Shown here piece after piece: positions 22,969 through 26,766 of a DNA stretch of 29,231 nucleotides (positions are counted from its first letter, which is position 1; every line of letters begins with the position of its first letter). Made by a program: the position numbers and the translations under genes. A model generated the notes under the pieces. It made no database searches, had not been told where the DNA came from, and saw nothing but the letters and a program-made list of their open reading frames with translations. The stretch spans positions 1-29,231 of the IMG/VR virus record IMGVR_UViG_3300037851_000865; one strand, written 5' to 3'. The DNA comes from a virus.

Positions 22969-23979
22969 TCACACTCGCTGATAGCTCCGCCATACATGAA
23001 AAAGCGGAGCATTTGTCATTTGCTGTACGAACTCGTCTTGCTCAAGACTGTCAGGCTGTGCCTCTACTCGATTACTCAAGCGCTCTGGATACTCGACAAT
23101 GTACGTAGAGGTGTTGAGCCGCTCAGCTGCGTCAAGCATGCCTTTGCGTCCAGCACCGTTATTGTCCAAGAATAGATACACCCTGGTGTTCAAGGCTTCA
23201 AGCATCCATTGATGCTCCCATGACAGGTAACTTCCTAGCAGAGCGACCACGTTCTTATACCCGCACTGCCAGGCCCACATGGCTGCCTTGAATCCCTCGA
23301 CCACCAGTATGTAGTTTTCTCGAGGGTCACCGGTTGTCAGCAGCATCTCTGGATACAAGTTGTGCATGTTGTACAAGACCGTGCGCTTCTTCCACCCCTT
23401 TCTGGCGGGCATGTGCCACGCCAAGTACTCATCCTCGTACACCTTGTAGCGAGGCGACTGGTCGTCATAGACGGCTCTACCGCTGACGGCGACAAGGTCT
23501 CCCTTGATGTCGCGGATTGGAAACGTGATTCGTTTCCACCAGCCGTCCCACCCAACGTTAAAGTGCTTGAGAGTCTCCTCCGCGTACTTCGGGAACATGT
23601 AGCCCACGTCGTGCTGGAAAAGACCCAACACCTGCTCATCAATTGGTGGACCGGTGAAGATAGAGTCGGGCTGCACCTGGCGCTCGCCAGGCGGAATATT
23701 CTTTCCGGCTTCGTCAATGAGTAGCCCGTAGTGAAGCTTGATTGTGTTTGCGTCGAGTCCTAGTTCTTGAAGGAATCTACGCAGCGTACCTTTCTCGTGA
23801 CACTGGTGGCAAAAATACACGCCCTTCGTGAGGGACATCGAGAACGAAGGGTTCTTCTCTTCTGTGCCATCCGCCTTTCGGTGGAAAGGACAGATGGCCA
23901 TGATGTTCTCGTTGCCCGAACGACGAACCTTGTTCAGGTATTGTTTTGCCAGCCCGAATATTTCGTTCGAGATATCCAT
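22969..23979 (-). CDS. dnaG: DnaG-type DNA primase
   Basis: CHC2 zinc finger (CPFH...PSFS...FCHQC), RITFPI, SGR, Toprim VVEGF...LDNNGAG...PD. Confidence 0.92.
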   Translation of the reverse strand: MDISNEIFGLAKQYLNKVRRSGNENIMAICPFHRKADGTEEKNPSFSMSLTKGVYFCHQCHEKGTLRRFLQELGLDANTIKLHYGLLIDEAGKNIPPGERQVQPDSIFTGPPIDEQVLGLFQHDVGYMFPKYAEETLKHFNVGWDGWWKRITFPIRDIKGDLVAVSGRAVYDDQSPRYKVYEDEYLAWHMPARKGWKKRTVLYNMHNLYPEMLLTTGDPRENYILVVEGFKAAMWAWQCGYKNVVALLGSYLSWEHQWMLEALNTRVYLFLDNNGAGRKGMLDAAERLNTSTYIVEYPERLSNRVEAQPDSLEQDEFVQQMTNAPLFHVWRSYQRV

Positions 23980-23981
23980 TG

Positions 23982-25406
23982 CTATGGTGCTCGTGGCGGA
24001 ACGAACTGCGCGGCGATTGCTGCTGCTCCTGGATTAGGTCCTCTCAGCGCTCCCGTAGGGTCTACAGGGTCTGTGTTTTGGTGTTTATTTCTTGCTGTCG
24101 ACGCCTTCTTGACGTTCTTGGGGTCACCAGCATCTGCTTGTGCCGCGCTCAACAGCTCATCCATTGAGATAGGGCCTGCGTAACCGAAGTTGGTGGCAGG
24201 AATACCGTGGATACGGAAACCCTCCAGATTGAACTCTCGAGAGCCGCCAATCATCAACGCCAGCGTAGGCACGTGCTTCTCATTGATAACGCGCATCGCC
24301 AGAGTAGCGTCCTGGCCGATTGCGTCCGAGAAGGCAATTTCATCCAGGTTGGCTTCCTTGTTTGTTGCCGCGGCTCGGTTTGCCTGTAGCGTGCAGATGA
24401 CAGGCACGCGTGTCTCCAGAATGGTTTGTCGCAGGTCGCGGCTGATGTTCTGCACACGTGCGTGGTCTTTCTGGCGAGGACCACCGCGAGCGTCAGACAT
24501 TAGGTACATACCGTCGATGAAGCAGATATCTGGTTTGTGCTCTTCAATCTTGCTTCGAAGCCACGATACAGTATCGCCTCTTTCTCCTGCGTCTTTGCCG
24601 GACAAGCACACCATAGACTGCACCGAACGCATCATTTTGACGTACTGCTTGACCTGGTAGAGGGCCTGACGTTCCATCTCAGTCAACTTGCCCTTACGGA
24701 ACTCGCTGTATCGCACACCTGCCAGAATACCGAAGACGCGCATGTAGACGTTGTCTGCTGTCATCTCTTTGGTATAGATGAGGATGCGCTTACCTTGTTC
24801 GAAGGTCCACGCAACATAGTACGCGAGTACCCAGCTCTTCATGGACTTAGGTCTGCCGTAGATAACGATGTAGTCGTCCGGCTGAATGCCGCCGGATTCC
24901 TCCTGCAGAGGGTGCCAGGGATGAGGGCAGACAGACAGATTGTACCCGGCAGCCACCATCTCGTAGTTGTGCATGATGGTGTCTGCCGCCTCATCGGCGA
25001 AGCGGTCCAGCTGCTTGCCGCCGACAAGCCTTTGCAGGTATCCGGTTTGCGTAGCGAGGTAGCCGATTGCTTGCTTGGCGTCTGTTTCCAGAAGCTGCGC
25101 GAAGCGCGTGAGAAGTTGTCGTCCTTCGCTCCTGCATCGATTCTGCCTGACCTCGTGGCACAAAGACTCGACTGTCATGGCCGGGTCATCCACAAGCTGG
25201 AACGTGGGGTACATCTGACGGAGTGCGTACTCTCCGATGATGGCGCCCTGCGTCTCGGGCATGTTGAAGTAGGTTAGCAGGTGATTGAATAGCGTGCGCC
25301 CTTCGGATGTTTGAAAGTCGTCAGGCGTGATGCCCCACTGCAGAGCGGAGTTGATGTTTCCTGTTCGAATGATTCTCGAGATGAGTTGATGGTCCCAGCT
25401 TGACGT
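23982..25406 (-). CDS. dnaB: DnaB-like (SF4) replicative helicase; probable start at ACG 25406 (first ATG at 25262)
   Basis: Walker A GRPKSMKS, KEM, Walker B FIDGMYLM, ISRDL, Q(A)NR, SDAIGQDA. The frame stays open upstream of 25262 as far as an in-frame TAG at 25428-25430; AGGAGG precedes the ACG. Confidence 0.85.
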   Translation of the reverse strand, partial: TSSWDHQLISRIIRTGNINSALQWGITPDDFQTSEGRTLFNHLLTYFNMPETQGAIIGEYALRQMYPTFQLVDDPAMTVESLCHEVRQNRCRSEGRQLLTRFAQLLETDAKQAIGYLATQTGYLQRLVGGKQLDRFADEAADTIMHNYEMVAAGYNLSVCPHPWHPLQEESGGIQPDDYIVIYGRPKSMKSWVLAYYVAWTFEQGKRILIYTKEMTADNVYMRVFGILAGVRYSEFRKGKLTEMERQALYQVKQYVKMMRSVQSMVCLSGKDAGERGDTVSWLRSKIEEHKPDICFIDGMYLMSDARGGPRQKDHARVQNISRDLRQTILETRVPVICTLQANRAAATNKEANLDEIAFSDAIGQDATLAMRVINEKHVPTLALMIGGSREFNLEGFRIHGIPATNFGYAGPISMDELLSAAQADAGDPKNVKKASTARNKHQNTDPVDPTGALRGPNPGAAAIAAQFVPPRAP

Positions 25407-25407
25407 A

Positions 25408-25968
25408 TTAGTACCCTCCTTTCCGGGCTACCTTCTGTAGTTCTTTTACAGTCGGGTTTCCCTGGGTTGCGGTCATATAGCGTGCTTCCAGTTCCGGAAA
25501 GTTGAGTACGTACTGCCCTTTTTCCCAAAAGCGCACAGCAAACAGGTCATAGGCCTGTGCTGCCTTACGTTCGTCTGCAAGGGTTGTAATGTACGTCTGT
25601 ACTCCGTTTATGCGTATGAGTGCCTTCCACTTTTTGGTAGCAGGCCACCACTGCACCCCCTTGTAGTCAGAGGTTGCTTTTCCTACCTTGCGGCGATGCC
25701 TGTTGCTCGTGACAACATCTACGATACGTAGGTTTTCCCTTCGATTATCGAGCCCGTTATGGTTGATGTGGTCCACGATTGTGCCAGGAGCAGCTTGCAG
25801 GATAAATCGATGCATTCGCACGTGTTTGCGCGTGCCTTCGGTACGTATATGCGTCACGGCGTACGTCACCCCGTGTTTGACGTGTACCGACCACGTGTGC
25901 TCGGCAACGCGGTCTACGTCTTGCTCACTTAGCAGCACTGTGTAGTTGCCTATTTGATATGAGCTCAT
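25408..25968 (-). CDS. HNH homing endonuclease with C-terminal AP2 DNA-binding domain
   Basis: MHRFIL...VDHINHNGLDNRRENLR, then S.YKGV.W....KKWKA.I...AA.AYD......NFP. Confidence 0.92.
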   Translation of the reverse strand: MSSYQIGNYTVLLSEQDVDRVAEHTWSVHVKHGVTYAVTHIRTEGTRKHVRMHRFILQAAPGTIVDHINHNGLDNRRENLRIVDVVTSNRHRRKVGKATSDYKGVQWWPATKKWKALIRINGVQTYITTLADERKAAQAYDLFAVRFWEKGQYVLNFPELEARYMTATQGNPTVKELQKVARKGGY

Positions 25969-25992
25969 AGTTATGCTTTCAGTCCAGCTTGC

Positions 25993-26043
25993 TTATCCCC
26001 TTAACCCGTCGGGACTGACCACCCTCCTCTTGAGGAGGTTCAT
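25993..26043 (-). other. 16-codon uORF (MNLLKRRVVSPDGLRG*) in frame with the HNH gene, inside a hairpin-rich leader
   Basis: ATG at 26043, ends GGA-TAA; eight sense codons then lead in frame to the HNH ATG. No SD, so translation is unproven. Confidence 0.3.
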
Positions 26044-26047
26044 GGTC

Positions 26048-26087
26048 AAACAAAAACGCCCACCCCCAACATGTTGGGGACAGGCGC
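26048..26087 (-). terminator. Rho-independent terminator upstream of the HNH/helicase genes
   Basis: CGCCTGT-CCCCAAC-AT-GTTGGGG-GTGGGCG followed by TTTTTGTTT; perfect 16-bp palindrome at 26064-26079. Confidence 0.7.
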
Positions 26088-26111
26088 TCCGGGTGTACCA
26101 AGATGCGGGGC

Positions 26112-26459
26112 TCAGACGGATGGAACGTCTTCGGCGGTACCGAGAAACTCCCCAATACCTCCTGATGGAATGCGCAGTCCTCGTGTGTCCTCTGACGATG
26201 CATCGGGTGTCATGACACTATCTGACTCGAAGTGCGCTCGAGCCACGTCTTCTTCCACAGCTTCGAAGAGCGCACGCATAGCTCGGTTGGTTTTCTCGGA
26301 CCACTGCACGGCCGTAGCATCCACCCAGCCGTGCGTTTGACCTGTTCGAGAGTTGGTGAGGGCTGCGAGCACCTCAATCTTAGGCAGCTCACGAAGACGG
26401 TCGATGCTGAACTTCGCGAGCGATACCTGGTCTGCTTTTAGTCTACCCTGGACGGCCAT
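26112..26459 (-). CDS. Hypothetical protein
   Basis: 115 aa, SD-like AGGTG, fits the operon packing. Confidence 0.55.
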   Translation of the reverse strand: MAVQGRLKADQVSLAKFSIDRLRELPKIEVLAALTNSRTGQTHGWVDATAVQWSEKTNRAMRALFEAVEEDVARAHFESDSVMTPDASSEDTRGLRIPSGGIGEFLGTAEDVPSV

Positions 26460-26766
26460 GTTTCACCTGCAGCGGCGGGGCCTCGATGAAGCTAGCCGCG
26501 TCGTTTACGAGTTCCACAGCTTTCCAGAAGCTTGCTTCACCCGCAAGGTTGATGGCTGCTTCTGTCTGAGGACACTCAACCGTGACGGTGACACTTACTT
26601 TGAGGGAGCCGTAATCGTGGGAGGTGCCCGCGGTCACAGATACCTTAGACGTGGCGTATCCGGCAGCTCTAGCCTGTGCAACTTGCGCGGAGAGCGGGGA
26701 GAAAGGCTCTGACCCTACTTGGTCGGACTTCCACCCGTAGCGCTCCAACGTGACGCTCCAATCCAT
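26443..26766 (-). CDS. Hypothetical protein
   Basis: 107 aa, TAATG coupling; beta-hairpin KVSVT...DYGSLKVSVTVTVEC followed by a helix. Confidence 0.55.
   Translation of the reverse strand: MDWSVTLERYGWKSDQVGSEPFSPLSAQVAQARAAGYATSKVSVTAGTSHDYGSLKVSVTVTVECPQTEAAINLAGEASFWKAVELVNDAASFIEAPPLQVKHGRPG

Follow-up and report, generated by a model that had tools for sequence, protein, structure and literature searches.

How does a replicative helicase gene start translation when no ATG, GTG or TTG precedes the N-terminus that its relatives share? The question is raised by a DnaB-type helicase gene on the minus strand of a 29,231-nt stretch of viral DNA (positions 1 to 29,231 of IMG/VR record IMGVR_UViG_3300037851_000865), the whole of which is here called the window. 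Immediately upstream of it lies a gene resembling HNH homing endonucleases. The evidence suggests that the helicase probably initiates at an ACG codon, aided by a strong ribosome-binding site and by termination-reinitiation after the HNH gene. The features on which the argument turns are the following.

23982..25406, minus strand: DnaB-type replicative helicase coding sequence as proposed, 474 codons from the ACG to TAG 23984-23982, defined by Pfam, homologue length and start column, and AlphaFold2/Foldseek.
25404..25406, minus strand: ACG, the proposed initiation codon, at the Met-1 column of the family and the same codon in contig L001.
25414..25422, minus strand: Shine-Dalgarno (SD) sequence AAAGGAGGG, core AGGAGG at 25420-25415, 8 nt 5' of the ACG and within the final HNH codons.
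25263..25403, minus strand: 47 conserved N-terminal codons, from the ACG to the first ATG, corresponding to helices 1-3 of the N-terminal domain (selection and AlphaFold2).
25260..25262, minus strand: first ATG (protein sequence MPET), the start picked by gene callers and a nearly invariant internal Met of the family.
25428..25430, minus strand: in-frame TAG closing the helicase frame upstream.
25408..25968, minus strand: free-standing HNH(-AP2) homing-endonuclease-like gene, 186 codons (Pfam HNH_3).

In the helicase frame, TAG 25430-25428 is followed by CCC GGA AAG GAG GGT ACT AAT, then by ACG 25406-25404 and TCA AGC TGG GAC CAT, whereas the HNH frame reads the same site as GCC CGG AAA GGA GGG TAC TAA, then T, then ACG. 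No ATG, GTG or TTG occurs in the helicase frame between TAG 25430-25428 and ATG 25262-25260, and this first ATG is preceded by the ACG and 47 further codons (144 nt). The TAA of the HNH gene (25410-25408) falls in the spacer between SD and start, 1 nt 5' of the ACG, and the SD itself, with an anti-SD duplex energy of -12.1 kcal/mol, lies inside the end of the HNH open reading frame (ORF). The ACG is one base from AUG, stands at the Met-1 column and has an SD 8 nt upstream. An initial annotation, made from the sequence alone, had described the open helicase frame without ATG, GTG or TTG between the TAG and the first ATG, the AGGAGG 8 nt before the ACG and the HNH stop one base away; all of these statements were confirmed on the sequence.

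Are the codons upstream of the first ATG translated at all? The helicase matches Pfam DnaB_C (PF03796; E = 1.1e-20, 74.5 bits against a cut-off of 27), and the Pfam model of the DnaB N-terminal domain gave no match to it. A protein-collection search with the extended frame returned hundreds of DnaB_C proteins, mostly 455-475 aa long, the window's own database call being 426 aa. The N-termini of these homologues align without gaps to the extension, and most start M-[AST]-[TSN]-W-[ED]-x-Q-L with the methionine on the ACG codon, the W-[DE]-x-Q-L residues 3' of that column being conserved. With about 80% of 105 distinct relatives, the ACG lines up exactly with Met-1. In comparison with the closest relative, locus L002 (79% identical), the 47 codons after the ACG have proportions of synonymous (pS) and non-synonymous (pN) differences of 0.67 and 0.12, and a ratio of non-synonymous to synonymous substitution rates (dN/dS) of about 0.08; the next 62 codons give a pS of 0.65 and a pN of 0.15, and four other relatives give similar values for the extension. 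In an AlphaFold2 model built on 34 sequences, the residues encoded by 25403-25263 have predicted local distance difference test (pLDDT) scores of 87-93 and form helices at model residues 11-22, 25-30 and 41-55, the seven residues 5' of the ACG scoring below 50. The helices of the N-terminal domain extend across residues 11-135 (pLDDT about 85-93), ahead of a linker helix, and a Foldseek search with the whole model retrieved full-length E. coli and V. cholerae DnaB and T4 gp41 over about 455 columns (E 1e-20 to 1e-15).

Because of the gap-free alignment of homologues, the purifying selection and the three confident helices, the extension is considered true coding sequence and not a chance open frame. 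The initial annotation had thought it probably coding, from an N-terminal pattern resembling DnaB, and the alignment, the pS and pN values and the structural model agree; it had also proposed a look at the N-termini of helicase homologues, which do start M-x-[ST]-W and not MPET. There is accordingly only a slim chance that the gene is 5'-truncated and works, or decays, as a 426-aa protein begun at ATG 25262. This ATG is the first canonical start, its Met is nearly invariant and the 426-aa form is found in databases, but 47 codons upstream of it evolve at a dN/dS of about 0.08 and encode three confident helices, and no SD-like sequence lies 5' of it. The Met is also kept in relatives that clearly start 55 codons earlier, and is therefore a structural residue. 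On the model, a protein started at MPET would miss the first three helices of the N-terminal domain. The helicase resembles bacterial DnaB and T4 gp41 in its helical N-terminal and RecA-type C-terminal domains and in the DnaG-type primase gene next to it, but it is only 13-19% identical to them in sequence, and its family comes from uncultured phages of about 145-200 kb.

Which codon, then, opens the gene across the family? A total of 141 loci were fetched, each anchored to a hidden Markov model of the helicase N-terminal domain, and the Met-1 codon was tabulated for the 102 distinct sequences.

ATG: 79 of 102 distinct loci.
TTG: 6 of 102.
GTG: 2 of 102.
ATC: 5 of 102.
ATA: 2 of 102.
ATT: 2 of 102.
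CTG: 2 of 102.
ACG: 3 of 102 (the window, L001 and L035, the last on an unrelated branch).
TCG: 1 of 102 (L002).

About one locus in six of the helicase family has an ATC, ATA, ATT, CTG or ACG start, and four further proteins listed as short in databases have ATC, ATC, ATA and one overlooked ATG at Met-1. A canonical in-frame alternative is absent from 13 of the 17 non-canonical loci, and in the database calls examined for such loci the helicase either lacks 20-55 residues or is begun at an upstream TTG. At least 6-8 changes are needed to place the non-canonical start on a maximum-likelihood tree, and ATC and ATA persist over 0.2-0.5 substitutions per site. The clade of the window is wholly non-canonical (support 99-100), with ATC in L003, TCG in L002 and ACG in L001 and the window.

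In E. coli, AUA, AUC, AUU and CUG initiate at 1-2% of AUG, and ACG belongs to a third group, of 57 codons, at 0.1-1% of AUG, the product bearing an N-terminal Met (bioRxiv 10.1101/063800). The non-canonical helicase codons are mostly the four of the 1-2% class. In a 38-member subclade, the mean SD duplex energy is -9.3 kcal/mol at non-canonical starts and -6.0 at ATG (Mann-Whitney p = 0.001, kinship ignored). The SD AAAGGAGGGTA recurs before ATC or ATA in L003, L010, L011, L075 and L140; L010, L011 and L075, in which no upstream ORF remains, have the strongest SDs. Initiation at some other near-cognate codon, either AAG 25421-25419 or an in-frame ATC or ATT a few codons after the ACG, is given a small probability. 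Several such codons are in frame, and the TCG of L002 shows that the aligned codon need not be the start; against this, only the ACG has an SD at 8 nt, the AAG lying inside that SD and the downstream ATC and ATT having none, and homologues begin exactly at the ACG column, with W-[DE]-x-Q-L conserved after it.

Could the ACG be an artefact, or one instance of a wider peculiarity of this phage? The initial annotation had considered that an assembly error might have put ACG in place of ATG. Over 1823 nt, the Joint Genome Institute contig L001, an independent assembly from another sample, shows a single difference from the window and also has ACG at this place; on this ground such an error was rejected. 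The phage genome is a single contig of 175,761 bp with 56.9% G+C, and in a greedy tiling of its 192 ORFs only the helicase has a long extension that is otherwise uncovered and contains no start codon. Loose start usage throughout the genome was thereby rejected, the other candidates being chance open frames or a mis-framed deaminase. The latter is a dCMP-deaminase-like N-terminus (FMGMAELIAQWSKDPSTKVGCVVV) at genome C1 ~128219-128311 (minus strand), which lies in another frame than the longest ORF and was mis-framed by the crude tiling. An altered initiator tRNA borne by the phage was likewise rejected: its four tRNAs, Ile-aat, Glu-ctc, Gln-ctg and Thr-tgt (genome C1 135375-135567 and 157802-158074), are of ordinary elongator type, and none resembles an initiator, since the 1:72 end is paired in each and the three G-C pairs of the anticodon stem are missing. 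The phage also encodes a transfer-messenger RNA, outside the window at genome C1:156918-157293, with the tag ANDNASAVLALAS, and the Ile-aat and Glu-ctc tRNAs have odd anticodon stems. A megablast search of the region against 50,697 GenBank phages gave no match, and tblastn found only relatives below 28% identity.

How might such a start have arisen? The HNH gene offers a clue. Its product scores 25.3 bits with HNH_3, just above the cut-off of 24.8, and 18 bits with AP2, under the cut-off of 33.3; the homologue in L139 has both the HNH and AP2 families on record. The gene is present once in the genome and is 55% identical to the copy in L002, which keeps the DHINHNGLDNRR motif. Only four distinct loci (the window, L002, L083 and L139) have such a gene immediately 5' of the helicase; L084 (the sister of L083), L003, L138, L140 and L141 have none in that position. 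All four loci with the HNH gene upstream have a non-canonical helicase start (p about 5e-4, or about 4e-3 if three insertions were independent).

The sister loci L083 and L084 allow the two states to be compared. Their upstream DNA is 98% identical in one 60-nt interval shortly before the start and 63-85% identical in others, and they share a leader ...GATAAGAGCACCCCAAGGAGG-N12-ATG, whose ATG opens the helicase (M-S-A-W-D-H-Q) in L084 and the HNH ORF in L083. The HNH ATG of L083 thus occupies the ancestral SD and ATG position of the helicase, and the helicase junction there reads ...AAAGAGGG TAG CCCC ATC GCT GCG TGG, with a ribosome site borne by the cassette. The two helicase genes are 70-82% identical in the first 360 nt and about 80-93% beyond, a pattern suggestive of co-conversion of the flanks, although faster evolution of the N-terminal domain could also explain it. 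In the window, two elements lie upstream of the HNH gene.

25992..26021, minus strand: conserved element TGGTCA-N18-GATAAG, with the HNH ATG 23 nt after it, where relatives lacking the endonuclease gene have the helicase ATG.
26052..26079, minus strand: terminator-like hairpin CCCCAACATGTTGGGG followed by a T run, at the end of the upstream gene block; conserved in L002.

Of 102 loci, 48 have an ATAAG in the 70 nt upstream, and the distance from TGGTCA-N18-GATAAG to the opening ORF of the helicase operon is 23-37 nt. In all four loci that carry the endonuclease gene, the HNH ATG follows the ATAAG motif at 23-27 nt, a distance that falls inside the range of the helicase ATG in loci without the gene; for L139, this value uses the second ATG of the HNH ORF, 12 nt after the called start, which is itself 11 nt after the motif. 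From the L083/L084 comparison and from this distance, the HNH gene is judged to sit on the original start site of the helicase, its ORF passing through the present SD and stopping in the spacer. The conserved element may serve as a promoter recognised by a polymerase or sigma factor that the phage itself encodes; a sigma-70 promoter scan of 25200-26200 made no call, TGGTCA-N18-GATAAG included. Hairpins similar to CCCCAACATGTTGGGG occur in L138 and L140. No good SD was found in the leader of the window's HNH gene. A further hairpin, AACCTCCTCAAGAGGAGGGT (window 26021-26040, minus strand), buries an SD-like AGGAGG upstream of the HNH gene; it is absent from the L002 flank and is probably not a conserved regulator.

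What remains when the endonuclease gene is lost? In eight loci, an HNH gene or a mini-ORF stops 1 or 4 nt short of the helicase start. L104 (440-486) has an SD and ATG opening a 7-codon ORF that ends KKVG* 4 nt before ATA, the HNH gene of L002 ending AKKVGY*. A 19-codon ORF in L003 (2465-2527) ends KKGG* 4 nt before ATC, and a 32-codon open frame with a GTG start in L140 (1380-1452) ends KKGG* 4 nt before ATA. These mini-ORFs begin near the old start site and look like remnants of in-frame HNH deletions that kept the stop-start junction. L010, L011, L075, L019, L033, L100 and L035 have no ORF ending nearby upstream, yet their helicase starts with ATC, ATA, ATT or ACG.

The order of events and the way the gene would now be read can be proposed as follows. 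A free-standing HNH-AP2 gene would have inserted at the original start of the helicase and taken over its 5' leader and ATG position, so that the helicase would now have a non-ATG start and depend on a ribosome site contained in the 3' end of the HNH gene. The strong SD AAAGGAGGG, 8 nt upstream, would position the 30S subunit at ACG 25406-25404, which the initiator tRNA would read as a near-cognate start, presumably with formylmethionine. Ribosomes finishing the HNH ORF at the TAA 1 nt upstream would probably stay on the mRNA and restart at the ACG. Since ACG is a poor start and the HNH leader in the window has no good SD, helicase output is expected to be low, and the neighbouring gene may be affected as well.

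22969..23979, minus strand: DnaG-type primase gene (Pfam Zn_ribbon_DnaG, Toprim and DNAG_N).

The helicase TAG and the primase ATG that follows it are 2 nt apart (window 23977-23984), with no evident SD-like sequence, so primase output would follow helicase output, its translation being probably coupled to that of the helicase and expected, through this coupling, to be low. We infer that translation does begin at the ACG, that reinitiation adds to it and that the low output is either useful, as a throttle or through sensitivity to initiation factor 3 (IF3), or merely tolerated. Of the mechanisms put forward in the initial annotation, translational coupling to the HNH gene gains support from the eight loci with a stop codon 1 or 4 nt ahead of the helicase. 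Its proposal that ACG initiation throttles the helicase stands as regards the start, which the Met-1 column and the near-cognate codons of relatives support, the throttling being still a matter of interpretation. Its third suggestion, a recoding step, finds little room, given a geometry unlike prfB, the lack of an intron match in Rfam and relatives without an upstream ORF that still have ATC. The seat of the HNH gene on the old helicase start and the spread of the pattern through the family go beyond that annotation.

Does the ACG matter at all if ribosomes arrive from the HNH gene? An alternative holds that the helicase is made only by termination-reinitiation after HNH, with the codon nearly irrelevant and independent initiation at ACG negligible. 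It would account for the HNH TAA 1 nt before the ACG, for the eight loci in which an upstream ORF or a 7-32-codon mini-ORF, retained despite HNH loss, still ends 1 or 4 nt from the helicase, and for L002, where the extension is still under purifying selection with a TCG and a weak SD. It is nonetheless unlikely: L010, L011, L075, L019, L033, L100 and L035 have no nearby upstream ORF and have the strongest SDs, and the window's HNH gene is not itself preceded by a good SD. Bacterial reinitiation is, moreover, expected to need a codon compatible with the initiator tRNA, which TCG is not.

An HNH-helicase fusion, made by programmed +1 frameshifting where the HNH gene ends, appears very improbable. 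The helicase frame is indeed +1 relative to the HNH or scar ORF in all loci with the endonuclease gene and in the scars, and an SD-like sequence just before a stop superficially resembles prfB. At the site UAC UAA U, however, the tRNA-Tyr on the P-site UAC cannot re-pair on the +1 codon ACU, the gap between SD and P-site codon is 1 nt, against 3 nt in prfB, and elsewhere the shift site differs (GGG TAG, GGG TGA) or the upstream ORF is absent. No N-terminally fused helicase homologue appeared in a search of near-length proteins, longer proteins being outside that search and fused forms not having been thoroughly sought. A ribosome hop from UAC to UAC over the stop was rejected, as it lands in the HNH frame and not in the helicase frame.

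Homing endonuclease genes often reside in group I introns, and the HNH gene could be imagined within an intron-like or bypass element preceded by a short exon with an ATG; alternatively, C-to-U editing could turn ACG into AUG as in plant plastids. Both ideas are hardly credible. The sequences AGGAGGGT and CAAGCTGG are repeated on both sides of the HNH gene, but these flanking repeats are not conserved in L002. An Rfam search over 25000-26600 at E <= 1 gave no match, so no group I intron was seen, and no upstream exon with a start codon for the helicase was found. Relatives without the endonuclease gene have a near-cognate codon at the same place and nothing to splice, and C-to-U editing could not repair ATC, ATA, ATT or CTG. 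Long-range pairing and a hairpin sequestering the SD were also tried and set aside, neither being conserved in L002.

Several observations weigh against initiation at the ACG. The lack of a good SD in the HNH leader of the window means that coupling may deliver few ribosomes. In E. coli, ACG initiates about ten-fold below AUC, AUA and AUU (bioRxiv 10.1101/063800), which is very low for an essential gene. The comparison of SD strengths ignores phylogeny, and a stronger SD with a non-canonical start is not seen in the sister pair L083/L084. Finally, L002, the closest relative and one that carries the endonuclease gene, has TCG at the start column, two bases from AUG, together with the degraded SD AAAGTGGGA; its extension is nonetheless under purifying selection. 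This TCG is unexplained: it could be a contig error, a decaying allele or the mark of a sub-lineage using another route than near-cognate initiation. It is because of the L002 codon that initiation at the ACG is held as probable, and not more firmly, and that residual weight is left on pure reinitiation, another near-cognate codon and frameshifting. An out-of-frame ATC occurs right after the HNH stop at L002:2353-2368 (TAA ATC GGC TAG).

Why should a non-ATG start accompany the endonuclease gene? One tentative answer, to which we give some credence but regard as doubtful, is that it was selected as part of a homing-endonuclease cassette and did not arise by drift. In an immunity version, the start codon would offer the only 'synonymous' way to change an ATG in the endonuclease target, and an allele carrying a non-ATG codon would escape cleavage. 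In a version that may be called 'translational addiction', the weak start would tie helicase and primase synthesis to ribosomes coming from the HNH ORF, and nonsense or deletion mutants of HNH would be penalised. If the cassette was selected in either way, the rare near-cognate starts of essential phage genes would have in mobile endonucleases a general origin that has so far gone unrecognised, and the codon would outlast the endonuclease as a scar.

How does the arrangement compare with known systems? The genes infC, encoding IF3, and pcnB have the only two confirmed natural non-canonical starts (AUU) in E. coli (bioRxiv 10.1101/063800). By analogy, the helicase shares with them a near-cognate start on an important gene, a functional ribosome-binding site and what would be low, probably IF3-sensitive initiation. 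It differs in being a phage gene with ACG, in which the middle base is changed and which belongs to a weaker class than AUU, and in that the codon varies among relatives (ATC, ATA, ATT, CTG, ACG), is tied to a mobile endonuclease gene and has no known autoregulatory logic. As with the mob and seg genes of T-even phages, for example mobE between nrdA and nrdB, the HNH ORF is wedged among conserved essential genes, is sporadic in close relatives and has a stop/start arrangement suggesting translational coupling (PMC2988022). The T4 endonuclease gene is the second of its coupled pair, whereas here the HNH gene lies on the start of the host gene and the essential gene comes second, with a downgraded start. 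The endonuclease activity, target site and homing of the window's HNH gene are putative.

Non-canonical starts, free-standing HNH and GIY-YIG endonuclease genes and coupling at their junctions are each already known. A literature search on homing endonucleases with near-cognate starts, and on AUC and ACG starts in phages, returned no description of the combined layout, in which an endonuclease gene sits on the start of an essential gene and a near-cognate start behind a strong SD persists as a scar after endonuclease loss. Natural non-NTG starts have been treated as near-curiosities in bacteria and are ignored by gene callers. A replication gene that is essential and probably ACG-started offers a concrete, testable case of extreme translational down-tuning, as does the wider helicase family with its near-cognate starts, and the link to HNH genes suggests how near-cognate starts may arise and spread. 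The combination of a strong SD, a stop codon in the spacer and a near-cognate codon provides a signature for further searches, and phage annotation pipelines should permit near-cognate starts downstream of HNH genes.

The HNH gene is not the only kind of mobile element met in this helicase family. One member, P0057 (823 aa), contains an intein, with LAGLIDADG and intein-splicing Pfam matches, and L049 has an 876-codon ORF, about 400 codons longer than the others, which possibly also holds an intein. The helicase gene may thus be a repeated target of different mobile elements.

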